From NCBI GenBank assembly GCA_030390025.1, contig CM059431.1:103666001-103730000 (forward strand): a stretch of 64,000 nucleotides of DNA, written 5' to 3'. The stretch's first letter is position 1, and each line of letters opens with the position of its first letter. Made by a program: the position numbers and the translations under genes. The notes below the pieces were generated by a model. It searched no databases, had not been told where the DNA came from, and was given only the letters and a program-made list of their open reading frames with translations. Positions 3,860 to 59,291 of the stretch are shown in pieces. The DNA is from Squalus acanthias. Taxonomy: Eukaryota.

Positions 3860-4310
3860 ACAACAACAACAGCAACTTGTATTTATATAGCGCCTTTAAC
3901 AGAGTAAAACGTCCCGCGGCGCTTCACAGGAGCGTCATCGGATAAAATTTGACCCCGAGCCACATAAGGAGATATTAGGACAGGTGACCAAAAGCTTGGT
4001 CAAAGAGGTAGGTTTTAAGGAGCCTCTTAAAGGAGGAGAGAGAGGTAGCGAGGTGGAGAGGTTTAGGGAGGGAATTTCAGAGCTTAGGGCCCAGGCAGCT
4101 AAAGTCACGGCCGCCAATGGTGGAGCGATTATAATCAGGGATGCTTAAGAGGCCAGAATTAGAGGAGCGCAGATATCTCGAAGGGTTGTAGGGCTGGAGG
4201 AGGTTACAGAGATAGGGAGGGGCGAGGCCATTGAGGGATTTGAAAACAAGGATGAGAATTTTAAAATTGAGACGTTGCCGGACCGGGAGCCAATGTAGGT
4301 CAGCGAGCAC
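3860..4310 (-). mobile_element. L2 3' fragment
   Basis: LADLHWLPVRQRLNFKILILVFKSL.GLAPPYL. Confidence 0.9.
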
Positions 4311-17341: not shown

Positions 17342-19167
17342 CAGGGAATTAAAGGCCAGTGAGCCTAACATCAGTGGTAGGGAAATTATTGGAAAAAATT
17401 CTGAGAGACAGAATTAGTCTCCACTTGGAGAGGCAAGGATTAATCAAGGATAGTCAGCATGGCTTTGTCAGGGGGAGATCATGTCTGACCAATTTGATTG
17501 AATTTTTCAAGGGGGTGACTAGGTGTGTGGATGAGGGTAGTGCAGTTGATGTAGTCTACATGGACTTCGATGCGGAGATGCCGGTGTTGGACTGGGGTGG
17601 ACAAAAGTGAGAAGTCGCACAACACCAGGTTATAGTCCAACAGTTTTATTTGAAATCACAAGCTTTCGGAGCTGCTGCCCCTTCGTCAGGTGAAGTGAAG
17701 GAATACGAATCGGCAAAGCATATATAGACAGAGAACAATGCCTGTGTAGTGTACAATCTCAGACGACTACAGTTAATCTATCTGACTGCCTTTCATCACA
17801 CCTCGGCAGAGAAACAATCAGGTCAGCCAGGAAGGCACCACATCAAAGACATAGCAAGATACAACTGAGACAATGAGGTGGGGTCACAGGGGGTCTAATG
17901 TGTCAAATGCAGTCTGTATGGAAAACCATAAACTTTAAAATTTTTACTTTTACTTTTTTTTTACTGGAAATCACATCTGTGAACTTGGACTTCAGTAAGG
18001 CTTTTGACAAAGTCCCGCATGGGAGACTGGTCAAGAAGATAAGAGCCCATGCGATCCAGGGCAACTTGGCACATTGGATCCAAAATTGGCTTAGTGGCAG
18101 GAGGCAGAGGGTGATGGTCGAAGGTTGTTTTTGTGACTGGAAGCCCGTGTCCAGTGGTGTACCGCAGGGATCAGTGCTGGGTCCTTTGCTGTTTGTAGTG
18201 TACATTAATGATTTAGATATGAATGTAGGCGGTATGATCAGTAAGTTCACAGATGACACGAAAATTGGTGTGGTGGTAAATAGCGAGGAGGGAAGCCTCA
18301 GGCTAGAGGACGATATAGACGGGTTGGTCAGATGGGCAGAACAGTGGCAAATGGAATTTAACCCTGAAAAGTGTGAGGTGATGCATTTTGGGAGGACTAA
18401 CAAGGCAAGGGAATACACAATGAATGGTAGGACCCTAGGCAGGACAGAGGATCAGAGGGACCTTGGTGTGCATGTACATAGATAACTGAAGGCAGCAGGA
18501 CAGGTAGATAAGGTGGTTAAAAAGGCATATGGGATACTTGCCTTCATTAGCCGAGGCATAGAATATAAGAGCAGGGAGGTTATGATGGAGCTGTACAAAA
18601 CGCTAGTTAGGCCACAGCTGCAATACTGTGTGCAGTTCTGGTCGACACACTATAGGAAGGATGTGATTGCATTGGAGAGGGTGCAGAGGAGATTCACCAG
18701 GATGTTACCTGGGCTGGAGCGCTTCAGCTATGAAGAGAAACTGGACAGGCTGGTGTTGTTTTCCTTAGAGCAGAGAAGGCTGAGGGGGGACCTGATTGAG
18801 GTGTACAAAATTATGAAGGTCATAGATTGGGTAGATAGAAAGGAACTTTTCCCCTTAGTAGAGGGGTCAATAACCAGGGGGCATAGTTTCAAGGTAAGGG
18901 GCAGGAGGTTTAGAGGGGATTTGAGGAAAAACTTTTTCACCCAGAGGGTGGTTGGAATCTGGAACTCACTGCCTGAAAGGGTGGTAGAGGCGGGAACCCT
19001 CACAACATTCAAGAACCATTTAGATGAGCACTTGAAACGCCATAGCATACAAGGCTACGGACCAAGTGCTGGAAAATGGGATTAGAATAGACAGGGCTTG
19101 ATGGCCGGCACGGACACGATGGGCCGAAGGGCCTCTTTATGTGCTGTATATGACTCTATGACTCTAT
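17342..19167 (+). mobile_element. CR1/L3 (HER1-type) LINE ORF2 RT fragment, split by a Penelope-like insertion
   Basis: RPVSLTSVVGK, DFSKAFDKVPH, GVPQGSVLGP, KFTDD, LYKTLVRP.L.YCVQFW, FFTQRVV.IWNSLP; in-frame TAA at 18483; (TATGACTC)n tail. Confidence 0.95.
17569..17985 (-). mobile_element. Penelope-like fragment (family A) inside CR1
   Basis: 8-bp TSD TGGACTTC (17561-17568, 17986-17993); shares terminal sequence with 13829-14038. Confidence 0.8.
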
Positions 19168-34085: not shown

Positions 34086-34579
34086 GGAAAACATTTGTCC
34101 AGTTAAAAATAAAAAAATGGACAACTGAAATTAAGCTACAATTAAATAAAAGGTTTGTTAAAACTTTAACTTTGCATATTGTTTAAGAAGGGAGAGGTTG
34201 TAGGTTTGCCTCAGCCAGGAATCAGATTTCCAGAGCTGACAGAGGAGGAACTGGGCCACAGAGGAAAGGGTTGTCCAAATATTAAAGTAGGCAAAGCACC
34301 ACGCATGTCTAAAAAATACCAGCTTTAAAGGAAGTGAGCTTGTTCCCTTGTTCCATCCTTTTTTATCGTTTTCTACTTTTTTTTTCCTTCATGGTTCCAG
34401 CAACAGAACCCAATTCAAGTTGCAAAGATGAGGTTTACTAGCACGACAGAGGCGTGAGACCATCAACCTCAGGCACCAGGATGGGCGGCTGCAATCCCGT
34501 GTGAGGCTCCTGCCAAATCTGAGTGGGGTGGTAAGCATGAACTGGCGACAGGAAATATAGCGGGGCGGTGGGGGGGGGG

Positions 34580-35665
34580 GGGGACTCTCCACTGGCTGGA
34601 GTTATACCTAGCACAAAGGAAGATGGTTGTGGTGGTTGAAGGTCAATCATCACAGCCCCAGGGCATCGCTGCAGGAGTTCCTCAGGGCAGTGTCCTAGAC
34701 CCAACCATCTTCAGCTGCTTCATCAATGACCTTCCCTCCATCATAAGATCAGAAATGGGGATGTTCGCTGATGACTGCACAGTGTTTAGCGCCATTCACA
34801 ACTCCTCAGGTAATGAAGTAGTCCATGCCCGCATGCAACAAGACCTGGATGACATTCAGGCTTGGGCTGATAAGTGGCAGGTAACATTCGCGCCACAGAA
34901 GTGGCAGGCAATGATTATCTCCAACAAGCGAGAGTCTAACCACCGCCCCTTGACATTCAATGGCATTACCATCACCGAATCCCCCACCATCAACATCCTG
35001 GGGGTCACCATTGACCAGAAACTTAACTGGACCAGCCACATAAATACTGTGACAACAAGAGCAGGTCAGAGACTAGATATTCTGCGGCGAGTGTCTCACC
35101 TCCTGACTCCACAAAGCCTTTCCACCATCTACAAGGCACAAGTCAGGAGTGTGATGGAATACTCTCCACTTGCCTGGATGAGTGCAGCTCCAACAACACT
35201 CAAGAAGCTCGACACCATCCAGGACAAAGCAGCCCGCTTGATCGGCACCCCATCCACCACCTTAAACATTCACTCCCTCCACCACCGGCGCACCGTGGCT
35301 GCAGTGTGTACCATCTACAAGATGCACTGCAGCAACTCGCCAAGGCTTCTTCGGCAGCACCTCCCAAACCCACGACCTCTTCCACCTAGAAGGACAAGGG
35401 CAGCAGGCGCATGGGAACACCACCACCTCCAAGTCACACACCATCCTGACTTAGAAGTATATCGGCTGATCCTTCATCGTCGCCGGGTCAAAATCCTGGA
35501 ACTCCCTCCCTAACAGCACTGTGGGAGCACCTTCAACGCACGGACTGCAGCGGTTGAAGAAGGAGGCTCACCACCACTTTCTGAAGGGCAACTAGGGATG
35601 GACAATAAATGCTGGCATTGCCAGCGGCGCCCACATCCCATGAACGAATAAATAAAAATAAAAAA
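34580..35665 (+). mobile_element. CR1-group LINE family B, 5'-truncated RT fragment
   Basis: 296-aa ORF: GVPQGSVL.P..F..FINDL, MFADD, IYKAQVRSVMEYSPLAW; ATGAA/A-rich tail. Confidence 0.9.
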
Positions 35666-40550: not shown

Positions 40551-41054
40551 TATAGAATAGACTCCCATCAAAAATAATTGATATTACGTGGAGTAATTCC
40601 CTTAAACAGAGTTGGATGAACATCAAGTTACGAATAAGATTAAAGTATATATAAGTATACTCTTAGATGATTGACTGTTTCATGAAACACTATGGGGGAA
40701 AAATTAGGTCGCGCCCCGTTTGGGGCGCAAATATCGTCTGGACGCAAAAATTAGCGCCTGCCGCTAATTATCGCCACTGACTGGAAACTTCACTTTTACC
40801 GCCCCGGGAGGTGAATGGAGCACTAAATCAGGCGCTGCACACCTGTCTTAAGGCGCAAAGGCCGAGCAGTGAGGCGCTAACTCAGCGCGCGAGCGCAGCG
40901 CAGGTGCTGCCAGTTAGCGAGGGAACACAGACATACTGGCGCCGGCCAGTTCTTAAAGGGGGGGGGGGGCCAACTTGCTCCCCAGCCACACCCTGCTCAT
41001 TGCAGCCTTGAATCTCGGCCTGGAGAGACCTGTGAATCCATTTTGCTGCCAAGG

Positions 41055-42874
41055 ATGGAGAGGGTGAGAGAACGAGCTCAGCGCTTCACCGAGCGGGCCT
41101 TGGATGCTCTGGTTGGCGCGGTGGAGCGCAGAAGATCTATACTCTTCCCTGAGAGTGGCAGGAGGCCTTTGCCACGCGAGTACAGAAGAGTGTGGAGGGA
41201 GGTGGCTCAGAGCGTCTCCTCCAGGAGCATGGTGCCCAGGACCCATGTTCAATCCCGCAAAAAGTTCAACGACCTCACTCGGGTCGTCAGGGTGAGTGGC
41301 TTTTTCTCAATACGTCTCCATCCCTCCATCTCAACCTCACTCTATGGCCAGAGGGTCTTAAAACCCCAATGCACAACACTCATCCAACACCTATGGCCCT
41401 TTCATGAAACACACACACACATTCCACACTTTGCATACAGTAAGGGCTATTCACCTATGGGAGGCACATCAGGCAAGACCATGGCTGCATACAGTAAGGG
41501 CTATTCACCTATGGGAGGCACATCAGGCAAGACCATGGCTGTATATTTACTCAGATGCTGTCCTTTTTCTTGCAGGCCAAGCTGGTGCATAATAGGAGAC
41601 AGCAGCAACGGACAGGTGGAGGGCGGCCTCAGCTGCAACCCCTCAGCGATCTTGAGGAGCGCGTCCACAGGATTGTGGCAAGCCGGGTGATCGCTCCCGT
41701 CGCCACTGGAGACGCCGACCCCGTTGTGGACAGCAATGGTAAGGTCATTACCTTTTTGTCCTCTGTCCTTCCACTTGTCCCTCACAACACCAGCCTTTGA
41801 CACTTTCAATCCAACTTGCTAACTCGCTGCACTTATTCCTCCCTTACTGCCACCCTGTCCTCACGCTAAAGCCACTCTTGTACCTCCCTGCTTTCAGATG
41901 GTGATTCACCAGCTGAGGAGACGGGCCCTGAAGCTGCCAGTGGGAGTGAAGCTGCAGCCGAGGAGGAAGAGGAAGCCGGAGCATCAGTGCCACCCTCTCC
42001 CGAGGAAGCCCATGCCCACACTGGGAACACGCCTTCCCTGGAGGGGAGCAGGGGGGAAGGGTCTGATGAGGGTGAAGCTCCAGGACCCAGCGGGCTGCAG
42101 CAACGCCATGGGGGTAGGGAAGAACGGGGGCCTTCTCCCCAGAGGGAGAGTATGCCAGCGACTCCTACTGCAATGGACGCAGAGGAGGAGCGGCTGATCG
42201 CAGAAATGAACACCCAGGCGGTGGGCATGCACACTGAGCTCATGGGTGCAGTGGGAAGGGTGCCCGAATGCATTGAGTCACTGGCAAGGAGTGTGGAGCA
42301 CTTCGCTGTAGCACAGGCGGATGCCACACTAAAGCTTAGTGCTGCAATTCAGTCACTGACTGCCGTGATCCCATCTCTGACTGCTCTCATGCAGACTCAG
42401 ATTGAGGCCACGCGAGCACTGACTGCTGCCAACCTCGATGGTTCGTTCACATCTCCCCGGGGCTCTCACCGCGCCGCAGCAGGCCAGCAATCTGTGCTCC
42501 AGCAGATTGCTCCGGATGCTGAAGTGCTGCCCCGTGGGAGTGCCAGTGTGTCGGTCGAGCAGGGAGTTGCTGTCCTCTCTCACGATGACAGCATTCCTGC
42601 TGCCAACACTGTCACTTCTCCACTGCACTTGCCATCGCCTGTAGGACAGACTGCTGCCGCCCATGCAGAGTTGGTGCAGTCTGCAGCCGGGCCCTCCAGG
42701 CCCAGAACTGGTCGAGGCCGTCCTTCAGGGGCATCTGCAGTGTCAGGGTCTGACAATCAGCAGCCTTCCACCAGCCTTGCTGCAGCCACTGAGGTCCCAT
42801 TACGGAGGAGCAGTAGGGTTAGAAGGGGGGAAGTGCGCAAGGGAAGGAGATCATCCTCGAAGGGCAAAAAGTAG
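41055..42874 (+). CDS. Harbinger Myb/SANT-like DNA-binding protein, 3 exons (41055-41291, 41576-41738, 41898-42874), 458 aa
   Basis: Exon 1 MERVRERAQRFTERALDALV...W REVA...RKKFNDL is a trihelix/Myb-like motif; exon 2 contains RRQQQRTGGG. Canonical junctions AGG|gtgagt, tttttcttgcag|GCC, ATG|gtaagg, ctttcag|AT; phases (0,1) join into one open frame of 1377 nt ending in a basic tail (RRSSRVRR...KGKK). Confidence 0.85.
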
Positions 42875-43186
42875 GAGGTGTGACAAAATGCTGGTCATTT
42901 TTTTATTAAAGGCCGAGGTTCGTGGTCCAACTTTTGTCTAGTGTTTTGGACATTATCTCCAGGTTGTGAGAACCAGTTATGTTAATGACTGTTTTTTTGT
43001 GTTTATTTCTATGAGTTTGTCATGAGGAAATGACACACACAGAGTTTGTAAAATAAATAAGTTTTTGTATTCAAAATATACATGTTTGGTGTTTGGAATC
43101 ATTGGTGCCTTGGCCGGCTTAGGGGTTGCGTGCTGGGTTCATTGATGTTGTTAGCAATGGCAGAAGCCATTTCCACAGCAGGGGCC

Positions 43187-44347
43187 CTAGAAGCGGCTTG
43201 CTATCAGCCGTTGACGGACGGCCCTTGCAGTTTCACCATTGTGGGCCGCCCTCCCGCCTTGGTGCTGCTGATGATCATCCTCCTCGTCCTCTTCCTCCTC
43301 TTCCTCCTCCTCCTCTGGTGGTGCTCCAAGGCCTGGTGGCATTGGCTGGGTCCTGACGATTGCCATGTTATGCAACATGCAGCACACAACTACGAAGTTG
43401 GATACTCGCTAAGGCGAGTACTGCAGGGCTCCTCCAGAATGGTCGAGACAGCGGAACCGTTGCTTCAGCACGCCGATTGTGCACTCAATTATGTTCCTGG
43501 TAGCTTGATGGCTCTCGTTGTACCGCAGCTCAGCAGGGGTGTTGGGCGTACGGAGCGGTGTCATCAGCCAGGTGCTCAATGGATACCCCTTGTCCCCGAG
43601 AAGCCAACCAACTGGCTGATGCGGTGCCTCGAAAAGTTCTGCCACAGTAGTCTGGCGCAGAATGAAAGCATCGTGGCAGCTGCCAGGATAGTGGGCATTG
43701 ACAGCGAGTATCAGCTGTCTGTGGTCACAGACCAATTGAACATTCAAGGAATGGAACCCCTTTCTGTTCCGGAAATCCTCGGCATTCTCATGTGGAGCAC
43801 GCAAAGCCACATGCGTGCAGTCAATGGCACCCTGCACCATGGGGAAGCCCGCTATCCTCGCAAAGCCCAGAGCGCGGTCACGCTGCTTGTCTAGGGTCAT
43901 GGGGAAAGAGATGAACTCTCGTCTCCTTTTAAAGAGGGCATTTGTGACCTGCCGGATGCAGCAATGCACCGCGAACTGGGAGATATTGGCGAGGTCCCCA
44001 GCAGCAGCTTGAAATGAACCAGTAGCATAGAAGTTGAGAGCCACTGTGACCTTCACTGCCACCGACAGAGACGTCCTGGACCTCAGTTGAGGCTGCAGAT
44101 CTGGCTGCAGCAGGTGGCAGAGCTCAGTGACCACCTCCTTGCTGAATCGCAGCCTTCGCAAACACAGCTCCTCAGACATATGAATGTAGGAGAGCTGTTC
44201 ACGATATACCCTGGGAGGGTAAGCTCTCCTGTACAGACGCCTGTTGGCCCTCCTCCGTCTGGCCATCATTGCCACTCTCTCTCTGCGTCTCTGTGTCCTC
44301 CGATTCAGCTGGAGCAGGACGACGCCCCCATTCAGTGCAGCCCCCAT
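43187..44347 (-). pseudogene. Harbinger (HARBI1-like) DDE transposase, 386 codons with one in-frame TAG
   Basis: Motifs ALNFYATGSFQ, GAIDCTHV, RNRKGFHSLNVQLVCD, LGDKGYP, RNIIECTIG. TAG at 43411-43409 (YSP*RVSNFVVVCCMLHN); the same frame continues through CCMLHN and an acidic tract to 43187. Confidence 0.92.
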
Positions 44348-45714
44348 AGTCTATTTGCAAGCAAATTTATGAAGGACAGCAACCAAAGTACCAGCGAAGT
44401 TAGGATCAGTAGGCAAAACTACCTCACAAAGCGTTGACTCAATGCAGAAGTCTCTCTTTCTCTCTCTCCGAATCTCTCTCTCTCAGAACGAGTGGTGCAA
44501 AAATGTCAACCACAGAAAAAGACAGGAAGAGGCCCCCTTTAAATAGTGCCCCCCCCAGCCCCACAGCGATTGATAGCGTTCCAGTCTTCCGGTCGTTGGA
44601 TGCGCCAGGCGGTAAGGCAGGGGGCGCCACTCAATTTCCGCTCCGGGGCGCCACAAGGGCGTTGCACTATGGAATGACGTCACAATCTGCGCACGCAGGT
44701 GGTCGCGGCGGTAAAGTTTAGCGCCGCCGCACAATGTCTAGTTAAGTTCCCGAGCGGCGCAAACATCGCTGCGCCCGGGCGCTAGCGGCTTTGCGCCCCA
44801 TTAGCGCCCTCTTAAGGCACTAACGGGAGGCGCAACCAACTGAATTTTTCCCCCTATGTTTCCTATCTTAGCACCATTCTTAAACTAAAATGAACTTCAA
44901 CATTAGCATATTTCAGCAAATAGATCCATTTTGATGATTATCTCTCTGAAATTAATTTGCTTGGGGTTAAATAAAATATATAAATCTTGAAGATATACTG
45001 TCCATTCACAATGGCTGTCTTAGCTCTGACCTTTTCACACAGCTAATCTGCTACAGTCTACTAATCCACCTCTGGAACTTTGTTATCGGGAGTGATATTC
45101 AGATTCTCCTCATCCAAGTGAGCTTTGCATCTTGAAGCGTCTAGCAATGTGATGCATGCGAACAACAAACCAAGGTAGCACAGCAGGCTCTTCTGAGAAA
45201 GCCATTATCTCCAGCATAGTCGCTACCTTATCCAAATAGCCAGACATCATCTCCTGCATTCAGAAATCTACACGTCCACTCCATCAAACAGCTAATTGAA
45301 TTTCTGTTGAACAGGGTGTCTTGGGTTTAGAACTGTCACCTGAAAAAAAAAATGTGGCAGAAGAACTAAAATAAACGAACAAAGCTGATAATCCATCATC
45401 AATGAATTGAAAGGGAAACACGTACACTTCCAACGTAAATGCATAAATACTTGAGTAATCAACCCTATTACCAGACTAAACTTACTGAGCAGAGATAACT
45501 TCGTTCTTGGCATTGTGCTGCACAGCGTGTTTATAGCATGCAATCGGCCTGTGTTGCGTACTAATGAATGAATGCAGATATACAGGGACAATGTTGGAGC
45601 CAATGGCATCCAGATCTTTAAGAAATCAATAGCTCTGATTGTAATTTCATTGTCCAGTATGGAGCTGAATCTCACAGGCCAAGAAAGGGCCAGTCTTATT
45701 CCTCAATTAAGTTA

Positions 45715-52394: not shown

Positions 52395-52850
52395 GTGTCA
52401 GCCGTGGTTCAGTGCACAGCACTCTTGCTTCAGAAGGTTGTGGGTTCAAGCCCCACTCCAGGGACTTGATCACAAAAATCTAGGCTGACACTCCCAGTGC
52501 AGTACTGAGGGAGCGCCGCAGTGTCGGAGGTGCCGTCTTTCAGATGAGATGTTAAACCGAGGCCCCGTCTGCCCTCTCAGGTGGACGTAAAAGCTCCCAC
52601 GGCACTATTTCAAAGAAGAGCGGGGGAGTTCTCCCCAGTGTCCTGGCCAATATTTATCCCTCAACCAACATCAGTAAAAAACAGATTATCCGGTCATTAT
52701 CACATTGCTGTTTGTGGGAGCTTGCTGTGTGCATATTGGCTGCTGTGTTTCCTACATTACAACAGTGACCACACTTCAAAAGTACTTCATTGGCTGTAAA
52801 GCGCTTTGACATGTCCGTTGGTCGTGAAAGACGTGATAGAAATGTCTTTG
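52395..52850 (+). mobile_element. SacSINE1-like SINE
   Basis: Full-length copy. Confidence 0.85.
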
Positions 52851-52952
52851 TTTTTCTCTTCCTTTCAAATTTTACTCTAATTTACTGTTAGGTAAACAAT
52901 CAGTGACAGTAAGAGTACATAGAACATAGGAAAGTAGAGGCCCAAAAATGAC

Positions 52953-53430
52953 ACAACAACAACAACTTGTATTTATATAGCACCTTTAATGTAGTAAAAC
53001 GTCACAAGGCGCGGCACAGGAGTATTATAAGACAAAAAATTTGACACCGAGTCACATAAGGAGAAATTAGGGCAGATGACCAAAAGCTTGGTCAAAGAGG
53101 TAGGTTTTAAGGAGCTTCTTAAAGGAGGAAAGAGAGGTAGCGAGGCGGAGAGGTTTAGACAGGGCATTCCAGAGCTAAGGACCCAGGCAACAGAAGGCAT
53201 GGACACCAAAGGCTGAGCGATTATAATCAGGGATGCTCAAGAGGGCAGAATTAGAGGAGCGCAGATATCTCGGGGGCTGAAGGAGATTCCAGAGATAGGG
53301 AGGGGCGAGGCCATGGAGGGATTTGAAAACAAAGATGAGAATTTTGAAATCGAGGCGTTGCTTAACCAGGAGCCAATGTAGGTCAGCGAGCACAGGGGTG
53401 ATGGGTGAACGGGACTTGGTGCGAGTGAGG
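52953..53430 (-). mobile_element. L2 3' fragment
   Basis: SPITPVLADLHWL...FKILIFVFKSLHGLAPPYL. Confidence 0.9.
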
Positions 53431-53949
53431 ACACATTTGCTCAGCCCCAAACACTAATAACTCTCAATTTCCCATTTCCTCAAATAGCTGTGCAATTCCC
53501 CCTTACACTTGCTGCACTATCTGCCCCCACCACCTTTCTGGGCTGTACATACTACAGTACATAGTTTACATTCTAACAGTGTTAGCGGTGGCTCAGTTTA
53601 TAGCAACTCTGAGTCAGGACAATGTGCGTTCAAGACCCACTTAGGAGACTTCAGAACAAAATCTCGGCCAACAATCCCGAAAAGAGTGCTTCACTGCTAG
53701 AGATGCTGTTGTTTGAATGAGACGTTAAACCGAGGCCCCGTCTGCCCTCTCAGTTGGATGTGAAAGATCCCACGGCCACTATTTCGAAGAAGAGCAGGGG
53801 AGTTATCCCCGGTGTCCTGGCCAATATTTATCCTTCAACCAACATCACTAAAACAGATGATCTGGTCATTTATCACATTGCTGTTTGTGGGAGCTTGCTG
53901 TGCGCAAATTGGCTGCCGTGTTTCCTACATTACAACAGTGACTACACTT

Positions 53950-54143
53950 TGTCGTAAGAATGAGCCTTACGCGTGGTGAACTTAAAGTAAGCTTTAATCA
54001 ACTAAAAAGGTGCTACATACAAAAGAGGTCTTATTCTATGCCTCTCCAGGATCCAACTGATCAGTCCAGTATTTATCCTGGACTAATCACAGGAAGTGAT
54101 GCAATAAAGTTCGAGTCACAGGAAGCTGTATTGTGTTACCACA
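53950..54143 (-). repeat. 3' LTR of Gypsy element
   Basis: Direct repeat of 56936-57129; adjacent to the PPT. Confidence 0.95.
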
Positions 54144-54161
54144 TTCTCCCCCCCCAAAAGA

Positions 54162-56765
54162 TTAGGAGGCCGGGATGCTCCCTCCATTTCGTAGCCGCTG
54201 GACGAGGGAGAGCCGCACCCGTTTGGGTTCTCGTAGCGGTAGAGGGCCCCTAGCCCGTTTACCTGCCGTGGGCCGTGGACCAGAGTCCGAGTGATCCAGC
54301 CCGCTCTGTGAGGGGTCAGGACGATCCTGACTGTGTACTGGTGCCCGAACGGGTGTCGGGCAGGGCTGTGGCAGATCCGTTTCCGAGCGTACGGTACGGG
54401 GTGGATCGTGGCTGCGCGTGCGAGCCCCGACGGGCTCATAGTCAGTCTGCCCCAGGTCGGCACGCTGGAGTGAGGTACCAGCCAGCGTCAGATCCAGATC
54501 GTGATGAGAGGCACCTGGCGAGCCCAGAGATGTGCCTGGTACAATATCATCCCCTGGTGTCCCTCTATGTTTCGGCGGGCAGGGAGCCAGATCCCGCAAT
54601 GACACGGTAGATTCCCGACCGTCAGGATACCGAATATAGGCGTAGGTAGGGTTGACGTCAGTGAGCTCAACCTCATCTACCAGGGGGTCATTCTTAGACG
54701 CCCGGACATATCTTCGGAGTAGCACTGGTCCCGGTGCAGTCAGCCACGACGGGAGAGATATCCCATAGGATGAGCGACGCTGAAATCGGAAGAACCGTTC
54801 ATGAGGCGTCGTATTTGTGGCGGTCGAAAGGAGGGACCGTGTGGAGTGTAATGCGTCTGGAAGTACTGCTTCCCATTGCTGGTTGGGTAGGCCCCGAGAC
54901 CGCAAAGCCAGACGTACCGCATTCCAGATGATAGCGTTAAAACGCTCGACTTGCCCATTCCCGACTGGATGATAAGGCGTCGTTTTGCTGGCAGCAATAC
55001 CCCGTTCCGAGAGATAGGCCTTGAGTTCTCCTGACATAAAAGAAGAGCCCCGATCTGAATGAACATAGGATGCCATGCCACAGAAAGCAAATACCTGCTC
55101 AAGGCAGCTGATAACCGTGGTCGTCAGCATATTGGGGCAGGGAAAGGCAAACGGAAAACGGGAATACTCATCGACCATGGTCAATAGATAAGTGTTGCGA
55201 GTTGAAGAGGGCAACGGCCCCTTAAAATCGATGCTAAGCCGTTGCATTGGCTGGGTCGCATGTATGAGTATACCACCCGAGGGGCGGAAAAACTGAGGTT
55301 TCAATTCCGCACAGACTCTGCAGTCCGAGCACATCTTCTTTACATCCCCGGTAGAGAATGAGAGATTTCGGGACCGCACGAAGTGTAGCATGCGAGTAAC
55401 GCCCGGATGACACAACCCATCATGGATGTCTACGAGCGTAGAGGGTGCCATGGCGGAGCAGAATGCTCGTGTGAGGTTATCCGGAGCCACATTCTCCTTG
55501 CCAGGTCGATAGTGGATGGTGTAACCAAAAGAGGCCAATTCCAGCCGCCAAAGCTGGATTTTATTATTTTTAATTTTGGTCCGTTTTCGATTATCGAGCA
55601 TGAAGGCGACCGATCGCTGGTCCGTGATTAAGGTAAAGTGCTGGCGAGCTAGGAGATGAGTCCACTTCCGTACTGCCTCTATGATGGCTGTAGCTTCTTT
55701 CTCGACTGGAGGATATTGTAGCTCAGCCCCTTGAAAAGTCCTGGATAAAAATGCCACCGGACGACCTTCCTGATTCAGAGTGGCCGAGATCGCCACCTCC
55801 GAGGCATCACACTCAACAACAAAAGGAAGACTCTCATCGATGGAGTGAAGAGCCGCTTTCTCCAACTGTTTTTTCAGGAGGTTAAAGGCTGCAACAGCCG
55901 CTGTGTCTCGTGGGAATGTGCTGGCCTTCAGTAGAGGTTGGATTCGGTCCGAGAAGTTAGGAATCCATTTAGCATAGTATGCAAACAGGCCGAGGGCCCG
56001 GCGCAAGGAGGCCGGATTCTTAGGTGGCGGGAGTTCTTGGAGTGGGCGAAGCCTTTCAGGGTCAGGTTTAATGATGCCATTGCCCACACAATAGCCAAGG
56101 ATGTTGATGGTTGGTTGTGACTCAATGGATTTAGCCGCATTTAATGTCAAATTACGGTGCTGGAGTGCGTCCCAAAATCGTTGGAGATTGGCGTCATGTT
56201 CCCGCTGATTGCGACCTGCGACAGTAATATTGTCCAGATAAGGAAACGTATCCTTCAAGTCTTCCTGTTTGACCAGGTCATCCATTGCTCGCTGGAAGAC
56301 AGCCACTCCATTAGTGACCCCAAAGGGGAGGCGACAAAATTGATACAGCCGTCCATTGGCTTCAAAGGCCGTATACTGCTTGTCTGAGACCTTCAAGGGT
56401 ACCTGATGATAGGCACTTTTCAGATCATATGTTGAGAACACCGTGTACTCAGCCAGGTTATTAACCATATCATCGATGCGCGGCAATGGGTATGCGTCCA
56501 AGTCCGTATATTGATTGATGGTCTGTGAATAGTCAATGCACAGCCGTTTCTTGTGAGGTTGTAGAGGGTTCTTAACAATAACGACCTGGGCGCGCCATGG
56601 CGACGAACAAGGCTCGATGATATCCTCTGCTAAAAGCCGAGAAATCTCAGCCGCAATAAAAGACTGGTCTTCCTGACTGAAACGTCGTGACTTTGTTATA
56701 ATCGGTTTGCATCGAGGAGGGATACTGGTAAACAGTGAGGGTTCATCCAGTGAAGCTGCTGACAA
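54162..56765 (-). CDS. Gypsy pol (RT, RNase H, integrase); open frame without its native start
   Basis: 867-aa ORF: RLCIDYSQTIN, DLKSAYHQ, LPFGVTN, YLDN (RT); ECDAS, EKEA, TDQRS (RNase H); H-x4-H...CxxC, IDFKGP, HSDRG, NGQVER (integrase). The listed start is TTG and an in-frame TGA lies shortly upstream. Confidence 0.9.
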   Translation of the reverse strand: MSAASLDEPSLFTSIPPRCKPIITKSRRFSQEDQSFIAAEISRLLAEDIIEPCSSPWRAQVVIVKNPLQPHKKRLCIDYSQTINQYTDLDAYPLPRIDDMVNNLAEYTVFSTYDLKSAYHQVPLKVSDKQYTAFEANGRLYQFCRLPFGVTNGVAVFQRAMDDLVKQEDLKDTFPYLDNITVAGRNQREHDANLQRFWDALQHRNLTLNAAKSIESQPTINILGYCVGNGIIKPDPERLRPLQELPPPKNPASLRRALGLFAYYAKWIPNFSDRIQPLLKASTFPRDTAAVAAFNLLKKQLEKAALHSIDESLPFVVECDASEVAISATLNQEGRPVAFLSRTFQGAELQYPPVEKEATAIIEAVRKWTHLLARQHFTLITDQRSVAFMLDNRKRTKIKNNKIQLWRLELASFGYTIHYRPGKENVAPDNLTRAFCSAMAPSTLVDIHDGLCHPGVTRMLHFVRSRNLSFSTGDVKKMCSDCRVCAELKPQFFRPSGGILIHATQPMQRLSIDFKGPLPSSTRNTYLLTMVDEYSRFPFAFPCPNMLTTTVISCLEQVFAFCGMASYVHSDRGSSFMSGELKAYLSERGIAASKTTPYHPVGNGQVERFNAIIWNAVRLALRSRGLPNQQWEAVLPDALHSTRSLLSTATNTTPHERFFRFQRRSSYGISLPSWLTAPGPVLLRRYVRASKNDPLVDEVELTDVNPTYAYIRYPDGRESTVSLRDLAPCPPKHRGTPGDDIVPGTSLGSPGASHHDLDLTLAGTSLQRADLGQTDYEPVGARTRSHDPPRTVRSETDLPQPCPTPVRAPVHSQDRPDPSQSGLDHSDSGPRPTAGKRARGPLPLREPKRVRLSLVQRLRNGGSIPAS

Positions 56766-56935
56766 TGCACAGAACGGTAATCGAGGTAGTATATTAGAAA
56801 TAGTGAGTTCAGGTTTGGATCCAAGTCAAGACGCGATGGTTTAAGGATGTTTTCCATGATGGGTGATTCCCTGGATCCTTAGTTCCGAGTTCGTCCAAAA
56901 AGTTTGAGTGCAAAGTTTTCCAAAGTTGATTAAAT

Positions 56936-57129
56936 TGTCGTAAGAATGAGCCTTACGCGTGGTAAACTTAAAGTAAGCTTTAATCAACTAAAAAGGTGCT
57001 ACATACAAAAGAGGTCTTACTCTATGCCTCTCCAGGATCCAACTGATCAGTCCAGTATTTATCCTGGACTAATCACAGGAAGTGATGCAATAAAGTTCGA
57101 GTCACAGGAAGCTGTATTGTGTTACCACA
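56936..57129 (-). repeat. 5' LTR of Gypsy element
   Basis: Direct repeat of 53950-54143; GATAAATA TATA-like motif and ATTAAA poly(A)-like signal on the minus strand. Confidence 0.95.
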
Positions 57130-57359
57130 CACTTCAAAAGTACTTCATTGGTTGCAAAGCGCTTTGGGACGTCCTGAGGTCGTGAAAGGTGCTATATAAA
57201 TATAAATTCTTCCTTTAGTCACCTCTGTGTACACTAACGTGTTCATACAGAAATCAGAGCAGTGCAAGTTGGATTTCTGTTACATAAGAACATAAGAATT
57301 AGGAGCATTATTAGGCCGTATGGCCCATTGAGCCTGCTCCACCATTCAATAAGATCTTC

Positions 57360-59291
57360 TGCCATCCCTGAACAGACCCGACACCAAGCGGCGGGTCAGC
57401 CAATTTAGATACTTAAAAGCTTGTTAAAAGGAAGTTAAGCAGGATTTTGCCATGTACTTACCATTTTACCAGCTTTTCCACGAGTTTCCCGGCGCGAGGG
57501 GATTATGTCAGGTAAGTCGGTCGGGTGTTGTGTCAGCATGGAATGATTTATTAACCTGACAACTGCAAATGGTCTATGACAGCTCCCATTTCATAGGTCT
57601 TCACTTTCCAGGCCCAGAAACTGTTGCTTACTGCATTTAGAAGACAGGTTGACCTTTATGCAGCTAGCAAGTGTTTGGAGCAAACTCTCTGTCCAGTGTC
57701 AACTCATTGGAACAACCTCTCTCACCATTGACAGATCGCTTCTGTCATCTCAACCTCACCTGCCATCTATTCCATCAGCATCGGTGCCCTTGAGAAAATC
57801 TCACCTTGGTCCTCAGAATCCCAACACGATCAGCCCCAACACCAACATCACCAACATCCACGCCAACCTTCTCCGCAATCAACTGATGCTGCACAGGACA
57901 CAGGGCATCAGCACCAAACCACATTGCTGCCTGGGATGCCAGCGATGGCCTCACCATGTCCAGATTTGCTTCACTTAACACTGTACATCCTGGCTGCCAC
58001 ATGATGCATCAGGTTGGCACCACCCCATACCAGCACCATAAGGCATCCCTACAATGTCCAAGTCATTCCTTTCACACTCATCACCATTTGGGGGAGGCAG
58101 GGGACGTTATGTCTCACCATTCACTGGAACTCACTTTCAAAGGTGCACACAAATCTATCCAAGAAGGCAAAGTGGTGAAAATAAGGATTTCAATGCTTGA
58201 CAACACATTAACAGAAACTTTACATGAACATTGGCTGAAGCACACAAGTGCCTACCCTTGTGTGTTGTTAGTTTGAATGATTGGACAGGGATGAGGGTGA
58301 GTGTGAGGGGTGGCTAGTGAGATGGGGAAGTGATAATGTAGATAGAGAGGGATGGGTGGAGGTGTAAGGTAAGTTGGTGTGAGTAAGGATGTGCAGGAGT
58401 ACTGTAGGGGAGGCAGAGTGATGTGGATGTGATGAGTGGCACAGGAGGATGAGGCTGAGTGTGGCTTTGCAGTAACGTTTCCTGATCTACTATGTTAGAA
58501 TTATAGAATCATAGAAATTTACAGCACGGAAGGAGGCCATTTTGGCCCATCGTGTCCACGCCAGCCGAAAAAGAGCTATCCAGCCTAATCCCACTTTCCA
58601 GCTCTTGGTCCGTAGCCCTGTAGGTTACGGCGCTTCAAGTGCACATCCAAGCACTTTTTAAATGTGGTGAGGGTTTCTGCCTCTACCACCCTTTCAGGCA
58701 GTGAGTTCCAGACCCCCACCACCCTCTGGGTGAAAAAATTTCCCCTCAATCCCCTCTAAACCTCCGACCAATTACTTTAAATCTATGATCATTGAAAGGT
58801 TGGCACCACTGCAGCCTGGTCCTCCTGACAACATCCCTGCTTGTGTCCTCCTGTGCAATGTGTATCCAGGCTGCTTTGGTGTCCTGGGGAGATCTCTTCT
58901 GCCCATTGGAAGGGAAGAGAACCTCCCTGCATGCTGTGACTCCCTCCATAAGCATATGGAGACAGTCTTGGGAGAGCCTGGGTGCAGCCATGCACCTCTG
59001 TGCAGTGATTGTCAGTGTTTGCAGCACCTCAATGCTGTAGAACACTGACAGCACAACTGTCAAAATGAATGTGGACATGGCCCCTTTAAGGAAACCGGCT
59101 GATGACGCGTCATCAAATGACGTCATCAGACCCGCTTCCTTTTAATTGGCCGGGAACTTCGCAGGGCGGGCTTAATAAGCCCAATCAGGGCAAAGTCACT
59201 TGGAGGAGGCGGGGTGAAGACGGGAGCGGGGTTCAAGGCCGCTGTCTACTCCGGCCGCACCGGACTCACCACGGCTGGCGAAATCGCGGCC
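57360..59291 (-). mobile_element. Degraded Harbinger derivative with a Myb-like exon (58785-59000), split by a CR1
   Basis: APRLSQDCLHMLMEGV...EVLFP...AAWIHIAQE...FND resembles the 41055 exon; right part resembles MITE 9356-10213. Left boundary uncertain. Confidence 0.7.

Follow-up and report, generated by a model that had tools for sequence, protein, structure and literature searches.

A Gypsy retrotransposon lineage of animals with a primer-binding site complementary to its own LTR at the poly(A) signal

A Gypsy element of Squalus acanthias, located in the 64,000-nt stretch of DNA analysed here (the window), carries a primer-binding site (PBS) that matches its own LTR in reverse complement, and this complementarity is a clade-wide trait in which PBS and LTR covary. 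Self-priming in some form is very probable. The system is best read as a known mechanism in another lineage, and its unusual points are the overlap of primer and poly(A) signal and the fossils left in the genome.

Results

Structure of the element in the window

The element occupies 57129-53950 on the minus strand of the window and is a gag/protease-deleted copy of a young family. The hallmarks of Ty3/Gypsy, namely TG...CA LTRs, a polypurine tract and a target-site duplication, are all present, and the parts of the element are as follows.

57130..57134, minus strand: 5' target-site duplication AAGTG
56936..57129, minus strand: 5' LTR, 194 bp, TG...CA
57056..57062, minus strand: TATA-like ATAAATA at LTR nt 68-74, a putative promoter element judged from sequence
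56979..56989, minus strand: LTR arm AGTTGATTAAA at LTR nt 141-151, the putative self-primer
56979..56984, minus strand: poly(A)-signal hexamer ATTAAA, judged from sequence, the final six bases of the arm
56978..56979, minus strand: predicted primer cleavage site AAA/G (LTR nt 151/152), placed by the invariant helix end and four mini-LTR junctions
56966..56978, minus strand: hairpin GCTTA-ctt-TAAGT, from the first base past the arm
56939..56957, minus strand: predicted U5 hairpin adjoining the LTR end (folding prediction)
56924..56934, minus strand: PBS TTTAATCAACT, with a single A (56935) between LTR and PBS
56813..56857, minus strand: gag-start remnant (ATG at 56857) and deletion junction
54162..56825, minus strand: 887-codon frame with RT, RNase H and integrase
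54144..54155, minus strand: polypurine tract
53950..54143, minus strand: 3' LTR, 194 bp, with two differences from the 5' LTR
54003-53993, minus strand: arm copy in the 3' LTR, without a PBS downstream
53945..53949, minus strand: 3' target-site duplication AAGTG

Relative to sister copies, the window copy lacks ~1.24 kb of gag-protease, and the deletion junction shows ~10 nt of microhomology (56822-56813). The protein has the order RT-RNase H-integrase, and all four full-length relatives have protease-RT-RNase H-integrase. Within U3, a perfect inverted repeat (window 57077-57044) holds the TATA-like box in its loop. A search of window 53000-58000 against Rfam gave four matches, all far below the cut-off. 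The element has inserted into one copy of a dispersed repeat that is common and probably a SINE (window 52500-53950 and 57130-57220). Elsewhere in the window, 40881-44350 holds a Myb/SANT-like frame on the plus strand and a DDE_Tnp_4 frame on the minus strand, a pair that we take to be the make-up of a Harbinger-type DNA transposon, while 17877-18485 and 34458-35513 are reverse transcriptase fragments, probably of LINEs.

The PBS and its partner in the LTR

The PBS TTTAATCAACT (56934-56924) is the exact reverse complement of LTR nt 141-151 (56989-56979), and this partner ends in ATTAAA. The original prediction, which had described precisely this complement including the hexamer, is confirmed. 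By chance, a match of at least 11 nt arises in only 37 LTRs when 100,000 are Markov-resampled and six start offsets are permitted. PBS and arm are identical in all 30 family copies first retrieved. Base 12 of the PBS in the window element is a T.T mismatch. The pairing perhaps reaches 56994, with two mismatches and G.U pairs. The first A of the arm sits within an initiator-like TTAGTT. The TATA-like box, which had been placed ~70 nt upstream of the partner, indeed starts 73 nt upstream of the arm (57062), and the transcription start predicted from it is ~57033 (LTR nt ~97).

The family and its relatives

The family is abundant in the 3.7-Gb genome: when two mismatches are allowed there are 2,381 LTR-PBS junctions, and the arm region occurs 3,928 times without any change. 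Full copies of the family measure ~4.4 kb. The same genome contains a sister family, 81% identical in the RT, which differs in its LTR but shares the geometry, its helix being 13 bp long. A protein search scored 7,999 candidates and found 1,694 relatives; the best 120 of these are mostly single frames of ~1,200 aa, and their named hosts comprise cnidarians, a mollusc, crustaceans, a nematode, a tunicate, a shark and a ray. The architecture of the lineage is one gag-pol frame of ~1,200 aa in an element of 4.0-4.5 kb with LTRs of 150-220 bp.

Several variants accompany these copies. The copies L129-L134 of the window family have longer internal regions, with frames of 1,417-1,636 codons. About 70 nt upstream of the polypurine tract, a subfamily (L137 at nt 4197-4236, L153, L156 and L158) repeats 40 nt from the beginning of the LTR, together with a separate purine run; this repeat is absent from the window element. 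L119 and L057 carry tandem duplications, located at the end of the LTR or affecting the PBS, and the helix geometry is kept in them. At G000:C1:562315-575082 a tandem run of elements shares LTRs, with four arm copies and three LTR-PBS junctions at 4,247-bp spacing, and resembles the tandem arrays of Tf1/Tf2 (PMC11042837). Eight contigs filed under bacterial MAGs (L119-L126) encode animal-type retrotransposons and are probably host contamination; among viral contigs, 53 pattern matches included no relative of the element. Of four sequencing runs compared with L005:1450-2350, the single raw RNA run and one contig run gave 0, and two contig runs cover the stretch; such contigs show neither RNA ends nor proof of transcription.

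Pairing across the clade

For the analysis outside the window we collected 88 loci, 80 kept from 534 metagenome matches and eight from genome contigs, among which 28 are testable in having a gag start plus enough upstream DNA. The helix is present in 24 of the 28, with 10-12 of 12 pairs; a helix of this kind was not found in L040, L050, L088 and L102, none of which has a locatable LTR pair. We then chose 19 representative families by hand, with LTR ends set by a CA-anchored search; L033, L039, L043, L054, L077, L122, L125, L127 and further shark-genome copies were left out as near-duplicates. RT-RNase H identity among the 19 families is 43-94% (median 54%), and their helices are 11-16 bp long.

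The original prediction had proposed covariation across related families as a check, and PBS and LTR arm do covary in the 19 families. Specifically, a family's own PBS and arm form on average 13.1 Watson-Crick pairs of 14, versus 9.9 for cross-family pairs, and none of 20,000 permutations, which ignore relatedness, reaches the own-pairing score. The pairing is family-specific at positions 5-9, 11-13 and 15-16 and falls to chance level from position 17 on. In a separate count over 12 aligned rows (one incomplete), 12 of the 16 pairs have changed on both sides, and 93% of cells are paired in the true register versus 25-47% in slid registers. L039 and L042 are 98.6% identical, yet differ by a concerted change of arm and PBS. 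Two diverged copies have a decayed 5' arm and an arm in the 3' LTR that still pairs fully. At PBS position 7 of the window family there are eight variants, all single-sided in the 5' LTR and without a matching arm change; we rejected them as concerted changes and read them as mutations after insertion.

These results bear directly on a host primer, whether a tRNA, a half-tRNA or another small RNA, with the LTR match being incidental. The core AGTTGA(A/T)TAAA is fairly conserved, and it is to the advantage of such a primer that cross-family pairing is as high as given above. However, the letters of the PBS track each family's own LTR at ten positions, TGG, with which the PBS begins in tRNA-primed clades such as CsRn1, Mag and Saci2/lennie, does not occur within 8 nt of the LTR end in any of 25 anchored loci, and the longest match is 7 nt among 20 of the 63 listed host tRNA genes, those displayed being only Lys and Cys. 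We therefore regard a host primer as extremely improbable, and the tRNA independence proposed at the outset is strongly supported, since the PBS follows the family's own LTR in 19 families. That proposal had concerned a vertebrate element; self-priming is very probable there, but the pairing is not restricted to vertebrates, and priming by an element's own RNA is not new in vertebrates in itself, being known from the Tf1/sushi group (PMC6317226).

Geometry of the helix and the poly(A) hexamer

The geometry of the helix is nearly invariant. The PBS begins with TTT one base after the LTR, and none of the 19 families begins it with TGG. The arm ends in TAAA followed by R-C-Y-T, so the helix ends at TAAA/RCY, and the boundary is AAA/R in all 19 families but one diverged copy (AA/G). 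The final hexamer of the arm is AATAAA in six families, ATTAAA in seven and another sequence in six, and the distance from arm end to LTR end is 23-65 nt. In most families an RCYT...AGGY stem follows the arm directly. A stem starting from the base next to the helix reaches a sum of 78 versus 56.7±5.0, with 2 of 5,000 shuffles as good; the position of the hairpin is only modestly specific, since stem sums at other offsets are nearly as high (62-75). Folding predicts a pairing probability of 0.79-0.98 for the local 5' arm in 18 of 19 families, and with 45 extra upstream nt the helix is still predicted to fold, with a mean pair probability of 0.87-0.99 in 18 of 19.

A helix that covers the hexamer might serve to hide the poly(A) signal of the 5' LTR, as the polyA hairpin of HIV-1 does. 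The original prediction had offered such masking as one possible function, and as a second role it is plausible, with a canonical hexamer inside the arm in 13 of 19 families. It is, on the other hand, quite improbable that the helix only hides the signal or aids packaging while another primer is used: in each of the 19 families the partner lies precisely where a PBS is expected, a single base past the LTR, no alternative primer site was seen, and L035 and L036 have their canonical hexamer in the loop, yet their arm still pairs despite its non-canonical end.

The 5' part of the arm reads pyrimidines-W-A-G-Y-Y, with G at position 10 in all 19 families and A at position 11 in 16, and is close to the initiator TCAKTY described for LTRs (PMC3601003). 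The helix of most families extends 2-5 bp beyond the initiator-like A on the upstream side, and the base at this 5' edge is mostly a pyrimidine, an uncommon choice for a cap site. TATA-like boxes lie upstream of the arm at -73/-74 in the window family, at -92 in the sister family and at -128 in one other; none was found within 160 nt upstream of the arm in the remaining 16 of 19 families. The TATA-like box had been taken to mean that the arm is probably not the 5' end of the RNA. This argument depends on a box that only the shark-genome families have at comparable positions; in the clade at large it is mostly missing, and the 5' end of the helix carries an initiator-like YYY(W)AGYY.

A model of priming from the RNA 5' end

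We consider it somewhat probable that the lineage, an animal Gypsy lineage that is probably non-chromoviral, uses a Tf1-like short primer from the 5' end of its RNA. In this model, genomic RNA would begin with the arm's 5' end, which is A141 in the window family, or a few bases ahead of it. Its first 11-16 nt would pair with the PBS and close a loop of 24-66 nt that opens with the hairpin, as the conserved, covarying complementarity and the predicted folds suggest. The RNA would be cut after TAAA at the junction of helix and hairpin, probably by the element's RT, to judge from the analogy with Tf1 and from the mini-LTR copies described below, and the 5' fragment would prime minus-strand synthesis. 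Strong-stop DNA would then end at nt 152 and jump to the 3' LTR, where a short piece of R remains, and plus-strand synthesis would copy the primer and regenerate the PBS. The short R implied here is not prohibitive, since R regions of 11 bp and 21 bp are reported for MMTV and RSV (PMC3601003).

Two consequences follow from the model. Because the plus strand would copy the primer and so regenerate the PBS, PBS and arm would change together. Because the primer would end in the poly(A) hexamer, the signal of the 5' LTR would be cap-proximal, base-paired and finally cut away, while that of the 3' LTR would be free, since the arm copy there has no PBS downstream. A short 5' primer, the reading to which we incline, would explain why the helix has a fixed end and the pairing a sharp 5' limit, why an initiator-like motif is present, and why there are deletions at nt 152 and a polymorphism at the helix boundary; the last two come from the copies considered next.

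Mis-replicated copies in the shark genome

Since thousands of near-identical copies preserve rare replication errors, the primer geometry can be read from DNA alone. The rare mis-replicated copies described here lend support to self-priming. PBS base 12 of the window family is mismatched except in six exact-flank matches, versus ~2,381 junctions; the six are three read-through copies, two point variants with A and one deletion. In the read-through copies the PBS is followed directly by inverted LTR sequence from upstream of the arm, which ends at LTR nt 96, ~38 and 1. L152 runs from the PBS through inverted LTR nt 151 to 96 and then stops. L153 reads through to nt ~38, upstream of the TATA-like box, and its own LTRs lack the arm. 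L154 (G000:C20:53245760-53246560) is a palindromic mini-integrant made of a whole LTR, the PBS and inverted LTR nt 151 to 1; both of its ends are U3 ends, with near-matching 5-bp flanks. In L162, of the sister family, the PBS continues through the whole inverted 3' LTR, the polypurine tract and 126 nt further, and its template was therefore the 3' end of an element. A plus-strand end that bears the PBS can thus be elongated on sequence from upstream of the arm, and at least once the template was a 3' end.

A second class of copies carries mini-LTRs, in which nt 1-17 are joined to 152-194 via AGCTT at the 3' edge of the arm. The junction was first encountered unsought, and two of the three read-through copies of the window family also have mini-LTRs at both ends. 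A directed search yielded eight mini-LTRs in four elements that have individual target duplications and differ in their internal deletions. The four differ in an internal marker, implying at least two parents, and separate origins seem likelier than descent since these LTRs lack promoter, arm and poly(A) signal. The 17/151 junction is one of 10 LTR microhomology pairs of at least 5 nt and was the only pair counted, hence the count has no control. The mini-LTRs are compatible with the product expected from minus strong-stop DNA that ends at nt 152 and makes a wrong jump.

Additionally, the sister family is polymorphic at the base past its 13-bp helix, with three common alleles. A is found in four of eight retrieved copies, and the non-A alleles are G in 86, C in 13 and T in one among the 100 listed of 122; among these 100, the pairing allele occurs in the read-through copy only. 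Tf1 RT performs untemplated addition at the primer end (PMC11042837), and the boundary alleles would fit such addition at the end of a short primer.

Longer primers and priming from the RNA 3' end

Against a short primer stand the TATA-like boxes 73-92 nt upstream in the shark-genome families and the end of L152 at LTR nt 96, about where the TATA-like box would start transcription. Both would be expected of a long 5' primer, in which a transcript starting near nt 97 from that box forms the helix internally and is cut after TAAA, leaving a capped primer of ~55 nt with its last 11-16 nt paired. The covariation that reaches upstream of the initiator-like A and the predicted folding of the helix with 45 extra nt also agree with it, it predicts the same cut at 151/152, and two start sites might coexist, compare the alternative starts of Tf2 (PMC5341516). 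However, most families (16 of 19) have no such box, a long primer would be expected to leave an unpaired plus-strand flap at the second strand transfer, and the stop of L152 may be due to chance, since the other three read-through copies end elsewhere: two of them at nt ~38 and nt 1, the third 126 nt upstream of the 3' LTR. Taken together, a long primer is rather unlikely.

The read-through copies raise a further alternative, in which the 3'-LTR arm is trimmed after TAAA and anneals to the PBS, circularising the RNA and priming synthesis, so that the first strand transfer is a snap-back. The template of L162 is the 3' end of an element; L153 extends upstream of the TATA-like box, its own LTRs being armless; and even with a transcription start at A141, the 3' copy could form pairs 12-16. 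If 3'-end priming were true, it would be a route that we have not found described for LTR elements, and L162 and L153 would be its direct fossils. The same products would nevertheless arise if a PBS-bearing plus-strand end mis-annealed to the 3'-LTR arm in leftover or co-packaged RNA, and read-through copies are rare (3 versus ~2,381 junctions in the window family). Moreover, the local 5' arm, given its predicted pairing probability in 18 of 19 families, would pair first, and 3'-end priming does not predict a strong-stop DNA end at nt 152. A primer near the RNA 3' end had been among the original suggestions; one read-through copy is compatible with it, but the four LTR deletions at the base after the helix are not what it predicts, and we judge it improbable. 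The short 5' primer remains the reading that we prefer.

Discussion

Our data suggest that tRNA-independent priming arose or survived once more, in an animal Gypsy lineage that is widespread and probably lies outside the chromoviruses. Hairpin priming has been proposed to predate tRNA priming (PMC3601003), and the lineage bears on whether it did. If the short-primer model is true, one stretch of ~15 bases would be start site, primer and poly(A) signal together, and the same device would spare the 5' LTR premature polyadenylation. Such elements would probably escape control by tRNA fragments, and they would fail annotation filters that require a tRNA PBS.

Where the lineage belongs among named Gypsy clades was approached by sequence and by literature. 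The best PDB match to the element's protein is Ty3, which gives no clade information, and the ESM Atlas returns unnamed Gag clusters. By eye, the RT motifs match no reference element in the published alignment seen in the supplement of PMC2871265: they are unlike those of Sushi, Maggy and Del, and differ from Mag, SURL, CsRn1 and Tag. The lineage motifs were not found in the readable supplements of PMC6238403 and PMC8556966, and the clade terms are absent from the main text of PMC2774666. A motif search of the full-text literature returned no paper with the lineage motifs. Neither self-priming in a non-chromoviral animal Gypsy element nor a primer ending in the poly(A) hexamer was found in the full-text literature, a search that covered neither subscription journals nor Repbase. 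Some Repbase entries reportedly label animal Gypsy families as self-primed, so an earlier mention is quite possible.

In size and hosts, the lineage is similar to the short, single-frame metazoan Gypsy clades, as described for Mag/SURL, CsRn1, Saci2/lennie, Tag, Cigr-1 and MolGy1-16 (PMC6238403, PMC11117352). Saci2/lennie was rejected as its identity on account of its tRNA PBS, lennie using tRNA-Leu (PMC4558846). The lineage may already bear one of these names, since the comparison with Cigr-1, Saci2 and MolGy rests on descriptions and not on sequences.

Among self-primed elements, a PBS complementary to the own LTR, with a primer cut from the RNA by RT, is described for Tf1/Tf2 of Schizosaccharomyces pombe, Tj1 of S. 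japonicus and the Tf1/sushi chromoviruses (PMC4600332, PMC5341516, PMC6317226); self-priming in Tf1/sushi extends from yeast to vertebrates and has been predicted for Tcn1 and TAR (PMC6317226, PMC4600332, PMC6934838, PMC5006619). For the plant elements Tcn1 (Gypsy) and TAR (Copia), the prediction came from a complement of at least 10 bp located 0-5 bp after the 5' LTR (PMC6317226), an arrangement that this lineage shares. Tcn1 and TAR belong to other lineages and hosts, and the accessible text of PMC6317226 mentions for them neither an overlap with the poly(A) signal nor mis-replicated copies that mark the cut.

Compared with Tf1/sushi, several features differ. In the lineage studied here the arm ends in the poly(A) hexamer and there is a single gag-pol frame. 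A chromodomain at the integrase C-terminus is typical, though not universal, for Tf1/sushi; it is absent here, since Pfam gave no chromo match for either the window protein (E<=0.1) or four full-length relatives (E<=1). The likeness lies in the PBS. Tf1/sushi elements, like this lineage, have a PBS complementary to their own 5' LTR, and the Tf1 primer is 11 nt long, the same length as the 11-nt helix of the window family.
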